This document shows positions 1-60,125 of a stretch of 60,230 nt of DNA, piece by piece; within the stretch, counting starts at the first letter, position 1, and the number at the start of each line of letters is the position of its first letter. The notes beneath the pieces were generated by a model. That model searched no databases. It was not told the DNA's origin and saw only the letters and a list, made by a program, of their open reading frames with translations. The position numbers were made by a program, and so were the translations under genes. Origin of the DNA: Endomicrobiales bacterium (GTDB lineage: Bacteria > Elusimicrobiota > Endomicrobiia > Endomicrobiales > JALOBY01); the NCBI GenBank assembly GCA_023228045.1, contig JALOBY010000007.1:1-60230 (forward strand). The letters are read 5' to 3'.

Positions 1-3000
1 GTGTAAAGCTTGCCTGATCTGTTGAATAATAAAGTTTGTATTGCGTTCCATCGGGGTTGGTGTTTTCATACCAGCTTACCCTGATTGTGTCACTTGTTAC
101 TCCAAGGGTGGCAAGTGATGATGGGCTCTTGGAAAGCGTGTAAATGCTAGATGATGTTGAGTCAGTATAGCCAACAGGGTTGTGTGCTCTTGCAAAAGCA
201 GTGTAAGCTTTGTTTGGTAAAAGCCCCGTGCCCATAAAAGAAGTGGTGCCCGCAGGTAATTCCCCGGAAACATCGGTTGTTCCAGAATAGATTGTGTACG
301 ATGTTTCTTCGTTTACATCACTCCAGCTTACTTCAATTGAGTTGTCGCTTAAAGCTCTTCCTGTAAAGAATGTGAAAGCAGATGGAGTGCCCCAGAACAC
401 TACATTATTTGGATCGTTTTCATAAGCATGGCCCGCCTTTGCGCCTGTGGCGTTATCCATTCTTATGTCATTAACGCTTGGAGAAGACATATTTATAGCC
501 GACACATTTACACCTACATTTGCGTCAAACGAACAATTCTGCATTATATAAACACCAGTTGCCGGCATAAATGTAATTGCAGTTGCGCCTGGTTTTGTGT
601 TTAGGAAGTTTATTTTTCTAAAACCAAACATTCCATTAACTATTGTAAAGGTGTCTATTGAAACACCGTTTGACCCGCTTAAAGTTAAACCATTTACATT
701 TAGCGTTGCACCTGAGATAATAAAACCAAAGTAGCCGGCATTTGAAGTTATTGTGTTGTAGGTACCGTAAGTGTTTAGTATGCCGCTTACACTTATAGTT
801 GAACCACCGGCAAGATAAATGCTTCCGTTGCCCATATCAAAGGTACTTGAGTTGTAAGCACCTATGCCGCCTATAGCAGTAAGTGTTGAATCATTTAGGT
901 TAAACTTACCATCAATGTATAGCGTATTAATAACTGTCATTGGTTTTGCACCATAGCAATCAAACTGAGAGTTGCCAGAAACAAGCATACTGCTAATTTG
1001 CACGCTTGCGGCCGGTGTTATTATTTTAGTAAGAGATGTACCATAAACTTCAAAAACATCAAATGTTCCTAAAAGCGGAGATAATGTTTGAGTTTGAATA
1101 CCATGAGTTTGCCATGTGCCGCGAGGGTTAAATGTGGTGCCTGCTTTTTGTGTCATATTGCCACTACCCCTCAGAGACACTTGCGCATTGTTTGTATCAA
1201 AACCGCCGTGGTTTATATCAAAGTTCCCAAAAACATTCATTGTGCCCAAAGTAGAAACCGTACCTGTGCTTTCAATTAACACATTATTAAAACCAGCACT
1301 GCCCGGGTAAATGGTTTGGTCTGTTGTGCCTGCAAAACTAAGCGCTCCAGTGCCCGCGTCAAACCCTGCGCCGCCGCTCACAAGAAAGTTGCCTGTAATT
1401 GTATGAGTGGCAGAGCCGGCAATGAAACTACCTGCATACATTGAAAGAGAACCCATTTGCACTGCGTTATTGTTTGCATTAAAACTTCCGGCACCAGATG
1501 GAAAGTATAAGTCGCCTTTTATGTTCAAGTTTGAATTTGCCTGAACATAGGAAGATGTTATTACGCTGAAGTTGTTAAAGTACGAGTTCTGAGTTTGTAT
1601 AACTTTTTGCGCGAGAGTTCCTGCAAAACTAACACCACCAGTGTTAAGCGTTACAATACCGCCAGTTTGTTTCCAATCACCTTTAATTGTAATTGTACTA
1701 CCACCTTCAGTGCTCATATAACCGCTTTGCATATCTAAATCGCCGTCAATGTTAAGGTCGCTTATCAGCATTATTGTTGAAGCTGATGGGCTTAGAATTG
1801 TCATTGAAGCAATTGAAATATCACTTACCCAATGACAATCTCCGTTACCTGTGCCATCAAATATTATTGTTTCGCCGTTTTGAGGCACACCAGCTGGTTC
1901 CCATGCCTCAGAGTTTAAAGAATTGCTTAACGATGTTGATACCCACTTTCTTGTTTTTACAACCACGAAGGCACTTGCAACATTACTATAATCACCTGCA
2001 ATACCGTCTGAGTTTTGCGCCCTTACTTTAAAATACGAGGTCGCGCCCGGAATAAGTGTGTTAATTAGAACCGTTGTCGTCCTTATGCGTGAAACAAAAG
2101 GTACCGGCGTTGTGTATGAGCCAAAATTACTATCGGTAGATTGAATTACCTCATAAATTGTGGTGGTAGAGGCATTACCATTTGCATCCCAGTTTAGCGT
2201 TGCGCTTGTATAATAAACTTCGCTAAATGATGCACTTTGCGGAGTTCTGGGTAAAGTGAACCTGCCAACTAAATTGGTTGCGCCGCTTTCACCGGAGGAG
2301 TTATACTGTGTTAAATATCTGTAATGTGTTGTATTTAATGCAAGCCCGCTTTCAATGTAAGCCGTAACATCTGATGTTAACCCAAGTGCGATACCATTTC
2401 CCAAACTATCATAAAGGTTGTATCCGCTTACATAAGTAGTGCCGTGGTTCCACTGCCATTTTATTGTGTCTGTGCCAATGGCAATACCAACAAAATCACT
2501 TGGCGATGCCGGCAATGTAAGCACATTTGTAACACTGCTGTATCCCGGTGAAACAACAAGCTCATTATTTATTGCGCCAACCCTATAAGCATAAATTGTA
2601 TCGGCATTTAAACTGGTATCGCTATAACTTGTGGCGGGAACAGTTGCAATAAATACACTATTTCTTTCAAGACGATAAGCGATAGCTCCTGTATCTGCCC
2701 AGCCAAGCGTAACTGAACTTACATTAACGGCGTTAACACTTACCGATGAAGGTATAATTGCATAAGTGTATTTTTGTGTTGCTGTTGCACTGCTTAACCC
2801 AGCGCCATTATATTGTTTTAGCACTCTTGTGTATTGGGTATTTGCATTAAGCCCGGTTTCAATGTAGGCTGTTACATTTGAAACTAAGCCAATCGCTAAC
2901 TCAAATCCCGTTGAAGTATAAAGGTTGTATCCACTTACATAAGTACTGCCATGGTTCCACTGCCATTTTATTGTGTCTGTTCCAATGGCAATACCAACAA

Positions 3001-4830
3001 AACCACTTGGTGATGCCGGCAATGTAAGCACATTTGCAACACTGCTGTATCCCGGTGAAACAACAAGTTCATTATTTATTGCGCCAACTCTATAGGCATA
3101 GTATGTATCGGCACTTAAACTGGTATCGCTATAACTCGTGCCGGTAACACTTGCAACAAATACACTATCTCTTTCAAGGCGATACGAATTTGCCCCAGTA
3201 TTCGCCCAGCTAAGTGTAATTGAACTTACATTAACGGCGTTAACACTTACCGATGAAGGTATAATTGCATAAGTGTATTTAGCATCACTGTTTGATGCAC
3301 CTGATATTCCACTTATGTTACCTGCTTTTACATATCTTGTGTATTGTGTGTTGCTGCTTAAACCAACTTCAAGCCATTGTGTCACACCCTCTACATTTCC
3401 AACTTTACTGTCATCAGTGCCATTGTATATCGCATAGTATGTTGCATTCGCACTTAATGTCCAACTCCATTGTATTGACCCCGTGCTTTGTACTGCTCCA
3501 CTAAATGAGCCTGGCGCAGCTGGCGGAGCGGTGTTTATTGTAATATCAATACCTAAACTATTAAATTGTGATGCTACAGGAACAGAATCTGCGTAAATGC
3601 TGTAATATTCGTTTGAATCTAACCGACCATTTTCGTTTACATCAACAAAAGCAGTCACTTTATAAAAACTATATGGTGTTGAAACCCTTAACGAGTAATC
3701 CCATGCCGGTGTGTTTGGAGTGCTTTCAGTAACATTATAAGGGCTTGCACCGCCAAAAGAAGGAGATGCAATTACAACAATGTTGCCTATTTGTTCAGAG
3801 TTGTTGGTTATATGTCCGCTTATAGCGCCAAAATCAAATAAAGAGAAATCCACATTTGAAGCAGTATGTGATGATGCGCTTAAATATATTGGCGTTGCAT
3901 TCCACCAATTTGACGCTTGCCTAAAATAACCTATCGGCTCATAGCCGTCCGGCACATCATTATCATTTTCATCAATCAGCGCCATAACATAGAAAGTATT
4001 TGGAAGCGACAAATTGCTAAAACTATAATACCCTGCACCAGTGAAAGAAGTTATAGGCGTTACAAAACTCATAACACCATTATCGCCGATAGCGCTTGCT
4101 ATAGCAACTTTATATACGCCGCCAACAAAAGAGCCATTGTAACTCATAATACCGGATATTGTTCCGGAAGTTATCGGCAATGCCTCAGAAGCACAGGCAC
4201 TTGAGATATTTGAAACTGCAGACCAATTACTCACTTCATCCGCGTTCCAAATTGCAAAATAATATGTTACACCCGAAGTAAGCGGGCCGACAATTTGCGA
4301 AACCACATCGCCCGACGTAACATTTGAAGTTGAAACGGTTATTTGCGCAAGCGGATAATTCCAGCCAGAGAGTGAGTCCCCACTTGCCACTGTGGCATAT
4401 TGCACTTTATATTGTGACCCTACCGGCAAACTTCCAAACATTCCATCGTCACCGGGAGCACCCCATGAAAGTTTAACATTGCCACCGAGTGTATCTGCCG
4501 TTCTTGCCACAAGTGTAGTAACCGCCGCTGGAGCTATTGTATCACCAAGCAAAATATAGGCAGAACTCATTGCGGATGTATTTGACCAACAATCAACATT
4601 TTCATCTCTTGTCCAAAGCTTAAAGTAATAGGTAGTATTGCCGCTAAGCGCACTACTGCTAAGTGTAACGCTTTGAGAATCTCCCGGGTTAATTGAACTG
4701 GTTGTTACAATTATAATCTGCGCAGAAGCAGTGCTCCATACAACGCCCTGACTTTGCGAATATTGCAAGGCAAACACACTACCAGCTTGCAATTGGTTTA
4801 ACATACCATCATCACCCGGTGCCCCAGGAC
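1..4830 (-). CDS. Giant cell-surface protein, C-terminal continuation, partial (runs off window start). It is the same gene as 4812..8615 read in the +1 frame. It contains FN3-like repeats with a WQWNHG..GYNLY motif, a parallel beta-helix-like region, and more FN3 repeats.
   Basis: I translated the minus-strand frame by hand and it stays open from ~4830 to the window edge. FN3 domain motifs recur throughout. The frame is open across the upstream stop codon and re-creates the domain motif SW-APGDDGM at the junction. The ORF track lists no such ORF, presumably because there is no stop inside the window. Confidence 0.7.
2250..3270 (-). repeat. Tandem duplication of two ~510 bp units (~170 codons each) inside the giant gene, encoding near-identical FN3 domain pairs.
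   Basis: The strings ttcaatgtaagccgtaac / ttcaatgtaggctgttac and ccactgccattttattgtgtctg recur at an offset of ~508-510 bp. The translated units KYTYAIIPSSVSVNAVNVSS...GTDTIKWQWNHG.TYVSGYNLY are ~90% identical. Confidence 0.8.
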
Positions 4831-26860: not shown

Positions 26861-26904
26861 ATGTTGAATGAGACATGGAGATAAAAATAGTTTGTCATCT
26901 TAAA

Positions 26905-27134
26905 ATCCCACTTGGCTGCTTATGAGCGAGTGTTTTTTGGGGTCTTCGTCTGCGGATGTTTGAGACCACCACAAAGTGGTGAGACGAGTTTCCGCAGACG
27001 CAAAAAAACACGAGAGAATAGCCGCGCGGGTGTATTTCTTTTGGTTACTTTTCTTTGGACAGCAAAGAAAAGTATCACGGGGCGCAGGCCGAAGGTCCCG
27101 CCAAAGGCGGTGAGGCAGAATAGCCCCGCGACTT
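26905..27134 (-). mobile_element. Family-A MITE-like repeat, copy 1 (inverted, right end truncated, with a ~30 bp extra hairpin insert).
   Basis: Its reverse complement matches 47974-48190 and 38787-39230 (aagtcgcggggctattctgcc ... gtgatacttttctttg ... taaccaaaagaaat ...). Confidence 0.75.
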
Positions 27135-27269
27135 TGAAAGGTTTTATAGTTACTAATCCAAAGTTTAGCTCTCGCTAAAGGCAGGTTAGCCAAGCGGGAC
27201 TTTAAATAAAAAAGATGCAACACTTATATTTCAAATAATATTTAACTGCAACAATAAATTAATAAGCCA

Positions 27270-29198
27270 ATGAAAAAAACCATAATCGTATTATCATTTA
27301 TTCTAATTTCTTGCGTATCTTATGCCACAGCAGAGCTTAAAGTTTCTGCCGCGGTAGATAAAACAAGCGTTGCTGTTGGTGAAGAAATTTTGCTAACCAT
27401 AGATATATCCGGGCAGTCGGTAAACATACCCAGTATAGAAGTTCCCGCAATAGCAAACTTTTCAATATACTCCTCAGGCCGCTCGCAAAGCATGTCTTTT
27501 GTAAATGGACAGGTTTCAAACTCTATTTCTTTTAGGTATGTTATAATTCCAAATGCTCAGGGGAAATTTACAATCCCGGCTTTAAACTTAAAGTATGACG
27601 GCAAAACATACTCTACACAAAATATAGAAATATCAGTAAGCGCATCGCAAAAAGCGAGTGTTACATCAGCGAACCAAAACGTAACTAAAGTAACAACACA
27701 AGATGCAACTTTGAGCGATAAAGCGATATTTGTTAAAGCCATAACGGATAAATCAAGCGTCTATGTAAATGAACAATTAACTTACTATTTTCACTTATAT
27801 AGAAGGGTAGATTTTTTAAACCAGCCGCAGTTTGCGCCACCCGGCTTCAGTGGTTTTTGGAGTGAGTCATACCCACCCACAAACAATATGACCGAAATAA
27901 ACGGCCGGCAATATATGCTAAGCGAATTAAAATTTGTACTTTTTCCAACATCGCCTGGCAAAATAACAATTGACCCATCAACACTTCAATGCCAAATTGC
28001 ATCAAACAACCCGGATGACTTCTTTGATGGTTTTTTTACCATGGGCAAACCTATTACACTGCGCACAAACTCAATAACAATAAATGTTTACCCTCTACCT
28101 AATAAAGATAAACCGGCTAATTTTTCGGGCGCTGTTGGTCAATACGAAATACAAGCCCAAAGCGATAAATCAAACACAAAAACAAACGACCCTGTAACAT
28201 TCAGCATTATTGTTTCTGGTTCTGGTAACATTAAAACACTGCCCGAGCCACAAATGCCGCAACTTATGGAGTTTAGAAAATTTGACACCGCAAGCACTTA
28301 CGACATTAATAAATCAGCTGGAAAATTTACGGGGTCAAAAACATTTAAAACACTCCTTTCACCGCAAAGCAGTGGAACAAAAATCATACCGGCAATAGAG
28401 TTTTCTTATTTTGACCCACAATCAAAAAGTTATAAAAAGATTTATTCAAAACCTATTTCTATAAATGTTACGCAGGGCACAACCGCAAACACGACAACTA
28501 ATTTTTCTTTTGCCTCCAGTGAAGTAAAACTGTTAAATTCAGACATCCGCTACATTAAAGATACTTTCACCCGGGTAAAAAATTACCCACTAAAAAATAT
28601 TCTGCTTATAATTAATTTATCTGCTCTTATACTGCTAATTCTATCTTTAATATTTGCTACGCGCGCACGCACGCTTCAAGAAAATGTTCACCTTTCAAGA
28701 AAGCTTGGCGCAAGCTCAAAAGCAAAAAAATATTTAAAAGAGGCCTCAAAACTATTCGAATCTGAGTTTTACAATAAGTGTGTGGACCGAGACGAGCGAG
28801 GCCGAGGATTTTTCAACTCAAAAAATGAGAGCGATGTGTTAACATCGGGCAAACTTTTTGAGGAAGAAAAAGTCCGGCATCGTTTGTCAAATCCCGCATC
28901 CTATTGTAAAACCCAGATTAAACATAATCACTCGGGCTTTTATTCCGCACTCAGCCGTGCTTTGCGTAACTTTATTGCGGATAAGCTTAATATATCGGCA
29001 GAGGGCCTTACAACAAAAGAGATATCAGCGACTTTCAAAAAACATAAAGTTCCGATTGAACTTGCCAATAAAACTTTTGAACTAATTGCTGAGTGTGACT
29101 TTGCCTGCTTTGCACCCTACACCCCGCAAAAAACTCAAATGCAAGATGCTTTAAAATCGGCCCAGTTAATTATAAATTCTTTGGAGAAGTTTTTATGA
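27270..29198 (+). CDS. batD: BatD (oxygen-tolerance protein), carrying an in-frame 52-codon family-B MITE insertion.
   Basis: 642 aa. Signal peptide, large extracytoplasmic domain, one TM helix near residue 440 and a cytoplasmic tail. The segment 28761-28916 is a repeat element (see findings). Confidence 0.75.
   Translation: MKKTIIVLSFILISCVSYATAELKVSAAVDKTSVAVGEEILLTIDISGQSVNIPSIEVPAIANFSIYSSGRSQSMSFVNGQVSNSISFRYVIIPNAQGKFTIPALNLKYDGKTYSTQNIEISVSASQKASVTSANQNVTKVTTQDATLSDKAIFVKAITDKSSVYVNEQLTYYFHLYRRVDFLNQPQFAPPGFSGFWSESYPPTNNMTEINGRQYMLSELKFVLFPTSPGKITIDPSTLQCQIASNNPDDFFDGFFTMGKPITLRTNSITINVYPLPNKDKPANFSGAVGQYEIQAQSDKSNTKTNDPVTFSIIVSGSGNIKTLPEPQMPQLMEFRKFDTASTYDINKSAGKFTGSKTFKTLLSPQSSGTKIIPAIEFSYFDPQSKSYKKIYSKPISINVTQGTTANTTTNFSFASSEVKLLNSDIRYIKDTFTRVKNYPLKNILLIINLSALILLILSLIFATRARTLQENVHLSRKLGASSKAKKYLKEASKLFESEFYNKCVDRDERGRGFFNSKNESDVLTSGKLFEEEKVRHRLSNPASYCKTQIKHNHSGFYSALSRALRNFIADKLNISAEGLTTKEISATFKKHKVPIELANKTFELIAECDFACFAPYTPQKTQMQDALKSAQLIINSLEKFL
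28761..28916 (+). mobile_element. Family-B MITE (156 bp, 18-bp imperfect TIRs tctgRgttttacaataRg) inserted in frame within batD.
   Basis: The reverse complement of 38853-39021 matches, including the TIRs. The length is exactly 156 bp (52 codons) and the element starts at codon boundary 498 of batD. Confidence 0.8.
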
Positions 29199-29932: not shown

Positions 29933-30575
29933 AAAAAATAAAACGAAAAACTCTTTGATTTTACCGGGTGGTTTTGGTAAACTGTGCTTAGTTATGAATG
30001 TAAAAAAAATTGGTATTTTTGGCGGTTCTTTTGACCCTGCACACAACGGACACATAAAACTTGCCCTTTTAGCTCAAAAGCAATTTAACTTAAATGACGT
30101 TATATTTGTACCTGCAAAGCTTGCACCACACAAACAGGAAAGTTTTGCCGCAGTAAAAGACCGCCTTGCAATGTTAAAACTTGCATTAAAACCATATAAA
30201 AATTTAAAAATAAGTTCTTTTGAATTGAATCAAAAAAGCACAACTTACACATACCAAACCGTAGCACATTTTAAAAAACTATTTGCAAGTAAAGAACTTT
30301 TCTTTTTACTCGGGGTTGACTCGTTAAGCGAACTTGTTACCTGGAAAAACCCAGAGGAGATTGTCTCGCAATGCCACATTTTGGCTGCAAAGCGCGGGAA
30401 TTTAAACTTTAATATACCAGCTTTTGCTAAGGACTCCGTGTCTTTTTTAAGCAGAACAATGCCAAACATTTCATCAACACAAATACGCGATAAAGTAAAA
30501 GAAAATAAATCTATTAAAACACTTGTGCCACCTAAAGTTGCGTCATACATTAAAAAAAATAAAATATATCAATGA
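29919..30575 (+). CDS. nadD: Nicotinate-nucleotide adenylyltransferase. The true start is probably the internal Met at ~29994 (MNVKKIGIFGG).
   Basis: GIFGGSFDPAHNGH (HxGH) motif. Confidence 0.85.
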   Translation: MKKYKKNKTKNSLILPGGFGKLCLVMNVKKIGIFGGSFDPAHNGHIKLALLAQKQFNLNDVIFVPAKLAPHKQESFAAVKDRLAMLKLALKPYKNLKISSFELNQKSTTYTYQTVAHFKKLFASKELFFLLGVDSLSELVTWKNPEEIVSQCHILAAKRGNLNFNIPAFAKDSVSFLSRTMPNISSTQIRDKVKENKSIKTLVPPKVASYIKKNKIYQ

Positions 30576-32352: not shown

Positions 32353-32715
32353 GTGCAAATGGAAAATAAAAAAGGAAGATTTCTCAAGTTAGCAAGAGCT
32401 GCGGCAAGAATTGCGGATGATAAAAAAGCATCAGAGGTAACCGTATTAAGCGTAACGAAGCTTACTACTGAAACCGATTATGTGGTAATTGCTACAACCG
32501 AATCGGCCCCGCAAACAAGCGCGATTTACCAGGAAATTAAAGGAATTTTTAAAAAAGATTTCGCTATTTTGCCATTGCATTTTGAAATGAGCGCAACTTC
32601 ATCGTGGTCGGTGTTGGATTTTGGCGGTGTGTTAGTTCACATAATGCCCGCAAGGTTAAGAGAGCTTTACGCTTTAGATAAAATTTGGGCTAATGCCGGT
32701 AAGATTAAGTATTAA
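32353..32715 (+). CDS. rsfS: Ribosome silencing factor RsfS (Iojap).
   Basis: 120 aa. DUF143/Iojap pattern (TDYVVIATTESAPQTSAIYQEI). Confidence 0.8.
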   Translation: MQMENKKGRFLKLARAAARIADDKKASEVTVLSVTKLTTETDYVVIATTESAPQTSAIYQEIKGIFKKDFAILPLHFEMSATSSWSVLDFGGVLVHIMPARLRELYALDKIWANAGKIKY

Positions 32716-35640: not shown

Positions 35641-35790
35641 ATTGTCATCTCGATGAGCGAAGCGACGAAACAATCTTGGTGTCATTGCGAGCGAAGCGTG
35701 GCAATCTAATAATCAGGACGAGATTGCTTCACCCCTGATGGGTTTTCGCCTTTGGCGAGATCTAGCCCCTTGGGCTGACGCAATGACAGT
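35641..35790 (-). mobile_element. Family-C MITE-like repeat copy (ctgtcattgcgtcagccc ... gaagcaatct ... cgcttcgctcgcaatgacac).
   Basis: Its reverse complement aligns with 43417-43640 and 59947-60125. Confidence 0.7.
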
Positions 35791-38786: not shown

Positions 38787-39230
38787 GTCGCGGGGCTATC
38801 CTGTCAGCCTCGGGCTGACGCCCCCGTAATACTTTTCTTTGCATGCCCAAAGTTACACCCAGAGTTTACAATAGGATGCGGGATTCGACAAACGATGCCG
38901 GACTTTTTCTTCCTCAAAAAAGCTCGACCGATGTTCACACATCGCTCTCTCTTTTTGAGTTGAAAAACCCTCGGCCTCGCTCGTCTCGGTCCACACACCT
39001 ATTGCAAAATCTGGGTTGAAGTAACCAAAAGAAATGCACCCACGGTGGCTATTCACTCACATTTTTTTGGCGGCTGCGGAACTCGCCTCGCCACTTTGTG
39101 GCGGGCTCAGGCAGTCCTCACCGAAAACTCCACAAAAATGCTCGTTCATTATCAGCCAAAGTGGGGATAAAGTTAGTAAGGCAAAAAATTTGTCACCTCG
39201 ACGAGTGAAGTGAGGCAGGATAGCCCCGCC
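38787..39230 (+). mobile_element. Family-A MITE, full-length copy with terminal inverted repeats (gcggggctatcctg ... caggatagccccgc). It carries a nested family-B MITE at 38853-39021. The M48 protease stop codon falls inside the right-hand TIR.
   Basis: Alignment with the copy at 47974-48190. The extra internal ~165 bp is the family-B element, with TIRs cccagagtttacaatagg / cctattgcaaaatctggg. Confidence 0.8.
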
Positions 39231-39231
39231 A

Positions 39232-40467
39232 TTATTTTCTATCTATAAGTGCTTGTATTCGCATAAGCACAGGAGGGTGGGTGTAGTCAAATAATACTTT
39301 AACACTGTGGGGTGTGAGGTTTGAAAGGTTATCCACGCTAAGTTTTTTTAAGGCGTTTAGCATATCACTACTGTTTCCAACACTACTTGCAGCAAAGGCA
39401 TCGGCTTCGTACTCATGTTTTCTTGAAAAGTAATTACTAATCGCAGAAAAAAACAAATTAATAACAGGATAAAGGATCATAAATGCAAATAACCCCGCAT
39501 AAATAGAATAGGTTTTAACATTCAATGCGTATGAGAAATTTTCATTTGTTGCGAAATACCCTGCTAAAAAAAGACCAATAGCGGAAAATATAAGTGATAG
39601 GGCAAACTGTTTTATAATATGTCGTTTTTTGTAATGCCCAATCTCATGTGCAAGTATGGAAACAATTTCAGTTGTTGTGTGTTTTGCAATTAGAGTGTCA
39701 AAAAGAGCAATTTTTCTAAATCTGCCAAAACCTGTAAAAAAAGCGTTTGTTTTAGCCGACCGGCGCGAGCCGTCCATTTTGTAAATTCCCTGCATTTTAA
39801 AGTTTTCTGATTTTGCAAAATTTAACACTGCGTTTTTTAACTCTCCCTCTTCTAATGGAATAAATTTATTAAATAACGGCATAATTAACGCAGGCCAGAT
39901 ATATATAAGCAGAACCTCAAAAATAAGCATAAATACCCAGCATAAAATCCAGCCGGAAAAACCAAATTTTTGAAAAATATAAAGTACACCAAAAAGCAAT
40001 ATAGCTCCTAAAACTGTTTGAAGAATAAAGCTCTTAATGAAATCTCCAATAAAAGTTCGTGCGTTCATTTTATTAAAACCATACTTTTCCTCTAAGACAA
40101 AAACCTTGTATAGTGAAAATGGCAAACTTAACAACTCTGAAATTAAAAAAATTATCCCAAAGAAAATTAAACCGGTTAATATTGGATTTAAGGCAAAACC
40201 TCTTGCCATAATATCTATTTTTTCAAAAAAACCAAACATTAACGCTAAAACAGTAATAACTCCCATAAAAACTGTGTTAAATACTGTAAACTTTGTGTTG
40301 TCTTTAAGGTAACCTTGAGCTTTCGCGTAGCGCTCATTATCATAAACACCAATAAATTCATCGGGCACTTCTTTTTTTAGCGCAGAGATGTTTAGCGCTT
40401 CAACAAGTAAGCGCACAATCAAAGATAAAACTATTGAACTTATAATCACCACTGTAAAAATAGACAT
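39232..40467 (-). CDS. M48 family (Ste24/HtpX-like) zinc metalloprotease.
   Basis: HEIGHYKKRH HEXXH motif. N-terminal multi-TM region. Confidence 0.8.
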   Translation of the reverse strand: MSIFTVVIISSIVLSLIVRLLVEALNISALKKEVPDEFIGVYDNERYAKAQGYLKDNTKFTVFNTVFMGVITVLALMFGFFEKIDIMARGFALNPILTGLIFFGIIFLISELLSLPFSLYKVFVLEEKYGFNKMNARTFIGDFIKSFILQTVLGAILLFGVLYIFQKFGFSGWILCWVFMLIFEVLLIYIWPALIMPLFNKFIPLEEGELKNAVLNFAKSENFKMQGIYKMDGSRRSAKTNAFFTGFGRFRKIALFDTLIAKHTTTEIVSILAHEIGHYKKRHIIKQFALSLIFSAIGLFLAGYFATNENFSYALNVKTYSIYAGLFAFMILYPVINLFFSAISNYFSRKHEYEADAFAASSVGNSSDMLNALKKLSVDNLSNLTPHSVKVLFDYTHPPVLMRIQALIDRK

Positions 40468-43416: not shown

Positions 43417-43640
43417 TTTTTTAGCTGTCATTGCGTCAGCCCCCGCCTTTGGCGAGGTCTAGACAAGACTCAGGCTGACAAGGGGCTAGATCTCGCCAAA
43501 GGCGGAAATCCCGAATGGGTGAAGCAATCTTTTATTAACTGTTAGATTGCTTCGTCGCTATGCTTCTCGCAATGACAAAACACATTGAAAGAAACATTGC
43601 CTCGGGCTGATTCGCTTCGCTCACCCGAGATGACACACCA
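43417..43640 (+). mobile_element. Family-C MITE-like repeat copy, with an internal inverted duplication.
   Basis: Alignment to 59947-60125 and to the reverse complement of 35641-35790. Confidence 0.7.
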
Positions 43641-47922: not shown

Positions 47923-47973
47923 AAGAACTCCTATGTTACATTTGCCATCTGTTTTTTACTAAAACATTTTTAA

Positions 47974-48190
47974 GTCGCGGGGCTATTCTGCCCCTGCACC
48001 CCTGTGATACTTTTCTTTGTATGCCCAAAGAAAAGTAACCAAAAGAAATGCACCCCCTGATGGCTATTCACTCGTTTTTTTTGGCGGCTGTGGAACTCGC
48101 CTCGCCACTGCGTGTCGGACTCAGACAGTCCTCGCCGAAACCTCCAAAAAAATACTCGTTCATTATCAGCCAATGGGGAATAACAAGCGA
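47974..48190 (+). mobile_element. Family-A MITE copy (right end truncated, no B insert) in the tig-clpP intergenic region.
   Basis: Alignment to 38787-39230. Confidence 0.75.
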
Positions 48191-49521: not shown

Positions 49522-49545
49522 TTAATTTAATTAACATAACAATTA

Positions 49546-49627
49546 TGCGGACGGAGGGAGTTGAACCCACAAGCCTTGCGGCACTAGATCCTAAGTCTAG
49601 CGCGTCTGCCAGTTCCGCCACGTCCGC
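49546..49627 (-). tRNA. tRNA-Leu (anticodon TAG), with a long variable arm.
   Basis: Cloverleaf built by hand. Acceptor stem GCGGACG/CGTCCGC. Anticodon loop CTTAGGA. T-loop GGTTCAACTCC. Confidence 0.8.
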
Positions 49628-49688
49628 AAAATTTGACTATAAAAACACCAAACCTTTGAGTATACCCAAAGGTCTTTGTAAAGAAGAG

Positions 49689-49761
49689 TGCGCCGCATAG
49701 GATTTGAACCTATAACCTGACGATTAAGAGTCGCCTGCTCTACCAATTGAGCTAGCAGCGC
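49689..49761 (-). tRNA. tRNA-Lys (anticodon CTT).
   Basis: Acceptor stem GCGCTGC/GCGGCGC. D-arm GCTCAATTGGTAGAGC. Anticodon loop CTCTTAA. T-arm TAGGTTCAAATCCTA. Confidence 0.75.
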
Positions 49762-56298: not shown

Positions 56299-56365
56299 GC
56301 CACCCCTGAATTTTTATCCAGTAAGTGGCAATAAAAAACCGCCCACTGGTTATAAACCAGATGGC
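56299..56365 (-). terminator. Two tandem stem-loops with U-tracts on the minus strand (CCGCCATCTGG ... CCAGTGGGCGG-TTTTTT and GCCAC ... GTGGC-TTTTAATTTT), lying between motif X copy 2 and the small ORF.
   Basis: Read directly from the sequence. Confidence 0.5.
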
Positions 56366-56367
56366 GG

Positions 56368-56425
56368 CCCGACCATCCAAATCCTCCGAAAGCATTAAAG
56401 CTTTCGAACCCTGTTGGTTTGCTAT
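56368..56425 (-). promoter_or_regulatory. Conserved upstream motif X, copy 2 (contains the perfect hairpin cgaaagc-attaaa-gctttcg).
   Basis: Alignment with 54804-54860. Confidence 0.45.
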
Positions 56426-59946: not shown

Positions 59947-60125
59947 CGTCTTTTCGTCAGCCCAAGAGGCTAGACCTCGCCAAAAGCGGGAAATCCGAAG
60001 GGATGAAGCAATCTCATCTTAACTGTTAGATTGCCACGGGCTAAAGCCCTCACAATGATTTTAGATTGCTTCGTCACTAATGACACCAGATTGCCACGCT
60101 TCGCTCGCAATGGGCATAATACTCA
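59947..60125 (+). mobile_element. Family-C MITE-like repeat copy.
   Basis: Alignment with 43417-43640 (cgtcagccc ... ctcgccaaaagcgggaaatccgaagggatgaagcaatct ... cgcttcgctcgcaatg). Confidence 0.7.

Follow-up and report, generated by a model that had tools for sequence, protein, structure and literature searches.

A palindromic miniature element read in frame within the batD gene of an Endomicrobiales bacterium

Fusion of small mobile repeats with the genes in which they land has been described in a range of bacteria. [quoted passage not shown] RPEs are palindromic units of about 105-150 bp that recur within housekeeping genes of unrelated kinds, where they keep the frame, are read through and add peptides at places that the protein fold accommodates (PMC10969869, PMC3184786). 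Here we analyse a stretch of 60,230 nucleotides from an Endomicrobiales bacterium of the Elusimicrobiota (contig JALOBY010000007.1; hereafter the window), in which a palindromic segment lies within batD. It is highly probable that this segment is a non-autonomous MITE that inserted in batD and is read through in frame without a stop, as the original prediction for this DNA had proposed: the segment is missing from orthologues of BatD, and other copies of it occur. That prediction also regarded the locus as a second example of the Rickettsia lifestyle, which does not hold, since the reviews already list in-frame fusions in several bacterial lineages. As such, the phenomenon is known, and it is the element family that is previously undescribed; full-text literature searches returned no description of MITEs in Elusimicrobia. 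What the locus offers is a clean case, with both empty and filled sites, of a mobile repeat that adds a peptide to a conserved membrane protein in a poorly studied phylum.

The batD ORF (27270..29198, + strand), identified from the ORF list and its match to Pfam BatD (E = 3.6e-46), is intact and comprises 642 codons including the insert, with zero frameshifts and zero stops; its stop codon overlaps the start of the next gene (ATGA), and this overlap is conserved. Within it, sequence, hairpin fold and nhmmer (E = 5e-48) delimit a MITE core at 28761..28917 (+), which is palindromic over its whole length and reads from 28761 tctgagttttacaataag … cctattgtaaaacccaga, with 28917 as its last base. 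Base 28761 is the first base of codon 498, and the segment therefore starts at a codon boundary, just as predicted. Its size, however, had been given as 156 bp (28761-28916), whereas the string tctgag…cccaga ends at 28917 and the unit is thus 157 bp, by itself no multiple of three. Compared with empty sites, the extra DNA in batD amounts to 162 bp (28761-28922), that is 157 bp plus 5 bp, or 54 codons. The frame downstream is kept because the 157-bp unit and a 5-bp target duplication together make a multiple of three, and not, as had been thought, because the unit itself is codon-aligned and 156 bp long. Likewise, the comparison of orthologues and empty sites gives 54 added residues (SEFYNK…CKTQIK, a hydrophilic peptide) instead of 52. 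Predicted peptides across the junctions of the longer BatD would be, for example, …ASKLFESEFYNK… and …CKTQIKHNHSGF….

Of the 1165 homologues that a protein search with BatD brought up, the four closest are 588-590 aa long, share 77-87% local identity with the BatD of the window (85-96% without the gap), and lack exactly these 54 residues; the segment is present in none of the 68 homologues that were aligned, which bears out the indel for which such an alignment had been suggested, at a size of 54 aa. For the DNA, we compared five syntenic metagenome contigs (L001-L005) with the gene order of the window, to which L001 is 94-95% and L002-L005 are 90-91% identical in nucleotides. Their empty sites read …CTATTTGAA|CATAAC…, where the window reads …CTATTCGAA[162 bp]CATAAT…. 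Furthermore, the BLAST alignments on either side of the insert share five bases of L001 (3616-3620), the signature of a 5-bp target duplication. The left target copy (28756..28760, +) is now TCGAA, against TTGAA at the empty site of the relatives, and the right one (28918..28922, +) is TTAAA, each being one substitution away from TTGAA. The element inserted at a TTGAA site of batD in the lineage of this metagenome contig, adding 162 bp.

Insertion and deletion are formally symmetrical, and this symmetry is all that speaks for the converse history, in which the segment was ancestral to batD and precisely deleted in relatives, or in which the repeat family derives from batD. That history is effectively refuted: 68 out of 68 homologues, from the nearest (94-95% nucleotide identity) to progressively more distant ones, are without the segment, its sequence recurs in settings unrelated to batD (nested within another repeat, inside genes for a glycosylase and a methyltransferase, and between genes), and the segment has terminal inverted repeats and flanking direct repeats. 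An artefact of assembly deserves mention, as the sequence of the window coincides exactly with that of a metagenome contig at ENA (ERZ27247363 k141_2091023, assembled with MEGAHIT) and repeats are a known source of misassembly. We consider it extremely improbable. The junctions carry a target duplication, the insert is exactly in frame, and the flanks share no repeat able to bridge a graph; moreover, the identity of the window to the ENA contig and the record of the exact 642-aa BatD product on two contigs make it unlikely that the insert arose in assembly.

The ends of the element are 18-bp imperfect terminal inverted repeats, as had been noticed from the sequence: TCTGAGTTTTACAATAAG on the left (28761..28778, +) and CCTATTGTAAAACCCAGA on the right (28900..28917, +) match at 16 of 18 positions. 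The alignment of nine copies yields CCCGGATTTTGCAATAGG as the family consensus of the left end, and with their targets the consensus ends read TTNAA|CCCGGATTTTGCAATAGG … CCTATTGCAAATTCCGGG|TTNAA. RNA folding, proposed earlier as a check, turns the interval 28761-28916 (156 nt) into one long hairpin of -63.8 kcal/mol, against a shuffle mean of -32.9 (z = -7.9; 0/200 shuffles as stable), and the opposite strand folds almost equally well. This hairpin is kept across copies, with 61 conserved pairs, 18 of which show compensatory changes. A central stem-loop (28832..28847, +; CGATGT-GTTA-ACATCG, in the family CGATGT-NNNN-ACATCG) contains the loop codon TTA at 28839-28841 (Leu524). According to the six-frame translations of the copies and their alignment, TGA or TAG stands at this position in four of eight other copies, and the two copies closest to that of batD carry TGA. 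Loops elsewhere are GTGA (win_c2 and L092a), ATAG (L091 and L092b) or of a GGG type (L093, L094 and L095), and it is only in the batD copy that the batD reading frame is open. The change from TGA to TTA in the hairpin loop, a G-to-T substitution unique to this copy, would either have been present already in the source copy or have been selected for removing the in-frame stop.

Several further traits of the hairpin were observed. In seven of ten copies, the + strand of the family folds 15-25 kcal/mol better as RNA, an asymmetry due to conserved G·U pairs, and the batD copy forms the least stable hairpin of the 157-bp group, with symmetric strands (-65.6 versus -63.6 kcal/mol). Seven transitions separate its terminal hexamers (TCTGAG / CCCAGA) from those of the consensus (CCCGGA / TCCGGG), and three of the six pairs are changed on both sides (columns 12/190, 14/188 and 17/185), whereby the inverted repeat is kept. 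The interior of the batD copy exceeds 90% identity with other copies.

With the family profile, nhmmer recovered 10 members in the window and related contigs, ranging in size from 157 to 211 bp. The second copy in the window had been predicted at 38853-39021, as a reverse complement nested within a different repeat, and was found at 38858..39015 (- strand); it is 158 bp long (one extra T) and 92% identical to the batD copy over 145 bp. The two ORFs that share the peptide RKKKSGIVC[QR]IPHPIV, at 28858..29085 (+) and 38804..38998 (-), are spurious and a real consequence of the two copies, as had been suggested. The repeat that hosts the second copy extends over 38790..39235 (+), with approximate limits from alignment to un-nested copies at 47969-48183 and 26900-27223 (-), all three belonging to a second, larger repeat family with the start AAGTCGCGGGGCTATYCTG. 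Further copies of this larger family lie on L001 (1793-1972, 7799-8036 and 9375-9591), L091 (949-1349) and L092 (7977-8339), and the composite of larger repeat and nested 158-bp element has spread to at least three loci.

An exact-word scan of metagenome contigs led to two contigs, L091 with a copy whose outer repeat is that of the second window copy, and L092 with one nested and one solo copy. Through a protein search with the six translated frames, the solo L092 copy was located inside an HhH-GPD protein (P0121), and copies were found in or next to a rhodanese gene (L093) and a 6-phosphogluconolactonase gene (L094), and in an S-adenosylmethionine (SAM)-methyltransferase gene of an Elusimicrobia metagenome-assembled genome at NCBI (L095). 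The length of 157 bp recurs in L092a, L094 and L095. L001, the closest relative of the window, has two members, a 211-bp relative inside rsfS and an intergenic copy upstream of nadD. The latter (L001 4683-4852) is diverged and absent from the window at 29988/29990, which indicates recent gain or loss of a copy between genomes that are about 95% identical. Insertions are absent at orthologous sites of contigs with 90-97% identity. The family is narrow: run at full sensitivity against 1.84 billion representative proteins, the 54-residue peptide gave seven clusters only, mostly short ORFs within copies. One product in the representative library, P0125 (166 aa), contains a copy in the batD frame; its N-terminal part may resemble the start of a transposase or integrase, a likeness that neither Pfam nor anything else confirmed. 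A scan of the genome collection with the GC-rich 20-mer CCGAGACGAGCGAGGCCGAG returned 85 loci, all of them chance matches of 20-26 nt (the word itself with a few neighbouring bases) to unrelated genomes, mostly of high-GC taxa, and a scan of viral contigs with an 18-mer returned zero matches. Rfam gave nothing relevant, whether the window was scanned at the gathering threshold or the element at E <= 1, Pfam and NCBIfam gave noise only for four element-encoded peptides at E <= 10, as fits a small element that encodes no transposase, and a promoter and terminator scan of the region found nothing above shuffle expectation.

The target duplication is best seen in the solo copy of L092 (6644-6800), which lies in the gene of a MagIII-like glycosylase and reads TTTAA[157 bp]TTTAA, a perfect 5-bp duplication of the single TTTAA at four syntenic empty sites (L097-L100). 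Glycosylase orthologues with 92% and 86% protein identity lack exactly 54 residues, and their contigs are fully syntenic with L092 at 97% and 92% DNA identity. Similarly, in rsfS of L001 the 211-bp relative is flanked by TTAAA/TTAAA, and the rsfS genes of the window and L002 are uninterrupted. The nested copy reads TTACA[element]TTGAA between AAAG and GTAAC, where un-nested outer repeats read AAAG-AAAA-GTAAC; L097 and L099 are without the whole nested composite. Terminal inverted repeats, 5-bp duplications and presence or absence in near-identical genomes together identify a MITE that is moved by a transposase making 5-bp staggered cuts. The elements form an undescribed MITE family with a 5-bp duplication at AT-rich, TTNAA-like targets, and its members would be transposed in trans by a DDE transposase that makes such cuts at TTNAA-like sites.

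Could the elements instead move as single strands? A Y1 transposase of the IS200/IS605 or RAYT type would insert them, REPIN-like, 3' of TTNAA without duplication, in which case the TTNAA on the right would belong to the element as its cleavage site. Such a mechanism would suit an element that forms a hairpin over its whole length, a + strand whose fold is the more stable by 15-25 kcal/mol in 7/10 copies through G·U/G·T pairs, and a right pentamer at batD (TTAAA) that differs from the target (TTGAA). However, the right pentamer varies among copies, with a central base that tracks the left flank in five of eight, and the L092 site has one TTTAA when empty and two when filled. Because the right pentamer follows the left and the duplication at L092 is a true one, movement by single strands is less likely; the long, near-perfect terminal inverted repeats are, furthermore, typical of substrates of DDE transposases, and we judge the mechanism improbable overall. 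The 5-bp duplication also sets the family apart from REP sequences and REPINs, as does its build, one 157-bp hairpin of moderate AT content (GC 0.43-0.56) versus inverted pairs of short GC-rich REP hairpins. There was no transposase signal near the copies, and no search was aimed at RAYT genes.

Returning to staggered cutting by a DDE transposase, a candidate for the enzyme can be named. The IS1380 family, to which ISEcp1 is assigned, typically makes duplications of 4-5 bp. ISEcp1 generates 5-bp AT-rich direct repeats and has the left inverted repeat CCTAGATTCTACGT (PMC6061673). The present family likewise makes 5-bp AT-rich duplications, and its ends are CCCAGATTTTGCAA or CCCGGATTTTGCAA, the CCCAGATTTTGCAA form agreeing with ISEcp1 at 9/14 positions when anchored at the tip. 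A MITE derived from IS1380 would be expected to have ends starting with CC and AT-rich duplications of 4-5 bp, and the present ends and duplications fit this. This tip match and the AT-rich duplications make an IS1380-type enzyme a reasonable lead, and a lead only, for the putative mobiliser; no IS1380-type transposase gene or full-length insertion sequence with the ends of the family was found in the ~190 kb searched.

What does the insertion mean for BatD? The original prediction had placed the insert in the cytoplasmic tail about 50 residues after the transmembrane helix. The hydrophobic stretch runs from residue 443 and AlphaFold models the membrane helix at 441-471, which puts the insert in that tail at about 30 residues past the helix. 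It lies at a helix-helix junction, with the first helix on the cytoplasmic side of the membrane anchor before it and a helical bundle at the C-terminus behind it: residues 503-541 have a pLDDT below 50 and are flanked by confident helices at 473-501 and 542-572. In the homologue alignment, the insert site is a position of variable length. Frame-neutral, stop-free and placed in a length-variable loop, the insert looks like a tolerated passenger and not like a functional domain, and it is presumably for these same three properties that the batD copy survived.

Two other fates of the protein were weighed. In the first, BatD would in effect be inactivated, by misfolding or by a hairpin block in the mRNA, the gene being a pseudogene on the way. 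A hairpin of -64 kcal/mol within the mRNA and 54 unrelated residues inside a helical cytoplasmic domain make this conceivable, but the 642 codons are free of frameshifts and stops, only 1 of the 10 substitutions that separate the region downstream of the insert from L001 is non-synonymous, the stop codon that the closest copies would lead one to expect is missing, and the overlap with the next gene is conserved. Inactivation is therefore unlikely. In the second, the peptide would have been recruited for a function, as a gain of a domain. Post-insertion adaptation could be reflected in the unique loop substitution that makes this copy stop-free, in the paired transitions of its terminal hexamers, and in its hairpin being the weakest of the 157-bp group. 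Against this stand the finding of the allele in this lineage only, the predicted disorder of the peptide, its lack of a match to any Pfam or NCBIfam family, and the reading of the same DNA in other frames in other genes, and recruitment is accordingly very improbable.

The dN/dS between the window and L001, 0.155 for the part of batD upstream of the insert and 0.027 for the part downstream, is consistent with a BatD that continues to function; these values are averages over both lineages since their split and are not specific to the time after insertion, which limits their weight. Some other observations also weigh against the interpretation of the segment as a MITE tolerated in batD. At batD the two copies of the target no longer agree in full (TCGAA against TTAAA, alike at 3/5 positions), and because of this we infer the duplication at batD from the other pairs. 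Only two copies are present inside the 60-kb window, and neither a transposase nor a full-length insertion sequence with the ends of the family was found in the window and related loci (~190 kb). Finally, that the longer BatD is produced and works is a prediction.

The residence of these elements within genes is recurrent, in agreement with the RPE-like behaviour that had been proposed: copies are in frame in batD, the MagIII-like glycosylase gene, rsfS and the SAM-methyltransferase gene. In a census by DNA criteria alone there are seven elements, three of which are the same nested composite, leaving four independent solo insertions. Three of these four are internal and in frame in coding sequence (batD, MagIII-like glycosylase and rsfS). 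For the glycosylase, comparison with H. pylori MagIII (1pu6) opens a gap of about 55 residues at the insert, with aligned blocks on both sides. For P0124, the alignment to the PDB covers only the region downstream of the insert, and its insertion boundaries therefore come from inspection of the sequence alone.

It is possible, though we hold it to be a tentative idea, that the family is specifically suited to gene interiors in the way of RPEs, in which case protein-coding palindromes would have arisen independently in a lineage that is free-living. Since 157 + 5 bp always amounts to 54 codons, insertions would be frame-neutral and would be lost only if the frame that is read holds a stop, and this would explain why three of four solo insertions are internal and in frame. 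If the family were so biased, its insertions would fall in genes far more often than those of ordinary MITEs. Depletion of stop codons in the 157-bp family, considered as a sign of such adaptation, was rejected: dinucleotide shuffles have matching totals of stops and matching numbers of open frames, and as a rule no more than one or two of six frames are open. The absence of depletion makes survival look like the filtering of frame-neutral insertions, not design. The one anomaly in this respect is the rsfS relative (L001 7244-7454, 211 bp). The gene that hosts it encodes 190 aa as against 118 aa, and of the 14 stops in the element 11 fall in one frame, with 0-1 in each of the other five (P < 0.0005 against shuffles). 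The addition to rsfS is 211 + 5 = 216 bp; this length and the confinement of stops to a single frame fit the notion of an element suited to genes.

Set beside RPEs, the family shares recurrent in-frame residence inside genes (3/4 solo insertions) and, at BatD, a site modelled as a low-confidence loop. It differs in that its peptides match no NCBIfam or Pfam model and its DNA no Rfam family, the nucleotide sequences of RPEs lying outside this comparison. Moreover, its host is an environmental Elusimicrobiota-like bacterium and not an obligate intracellular alphaproteobacterium, its terminal inverted repeats are clear and a target duplication of 5 bp is demonstrated for it, the frame in which it is read changes from gene to gene whereas each RPE family yields one conserved peptide, and it shows no overall depletion of stop codons. 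With bacterial MITEs known to fuse in frame within genes (ERIC, BOX/RUP, BRE, the MITEs of Anabaena, QMITE1/2 of Coxiella and Correia elements) it has in common a small size, terminal inverted repeats, target duplications, long RNA/DNA hairpins, the occasional in-frame fusion to host ORFs and differences in presence between strains. It belongs, however, to another sequence family and another phylum, and internal in-frame insertions make up an unusually large share of what is a very small sample, set against the mostly intergenic locations reported for those families.

The family also has consequences for annotation, as it gives rise to spurious small ORFs, 5' extensions of genes and orthologues of outlying length (for example P0122 and P0126-P0130), and annotation pipelines should mask it. 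Two candidates for clean internal insertions were rejected. In P0122, the rhodanese, the element is upstream of the probable true start, which suggests that this 220-aa product is over-extended at its 5' end; in P0123, the 6-phosphogluconolactonase, the element forms the C-terminus and ends in a stop. The copy next to the rhodanese gene (L093 394-571) has an extra 21-bp insert in one arm, a GC-rich stem-loop (CCCGCCTCTTCGGCGGG) with a UUCG-type loop.

Other repeats were observed in the window and its relatives. On L001, two inverted copies of the larger repeat bracket a 1.8-kb segment with three small ORFs, which the window lacks at 32714/32718. Another family, the third, consists of repeats of about 72-91 bp (CAAGGGGCTAGATCTCGCCAAAGGCGG…TTAACTGTTAGATTGC); it is 80-85% identical between copies and occurs in both orientations in the window, at 35697-35787, 43479-43550 and 59948-60038. 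The window further contains, at 56359-56411 (-) and 49545-49761 (-), an Rfam nhaA-I riboswitch (52 bits, gathering score 37) and adjacent tRNA-Leu and tRNA-Lys genes. Lastly, a 300-nt direct repeat (2331-2630 and 2838-3137), its two copies 85% identical and 507 bp apart, is probably a tandem duplication of a gene or domain.

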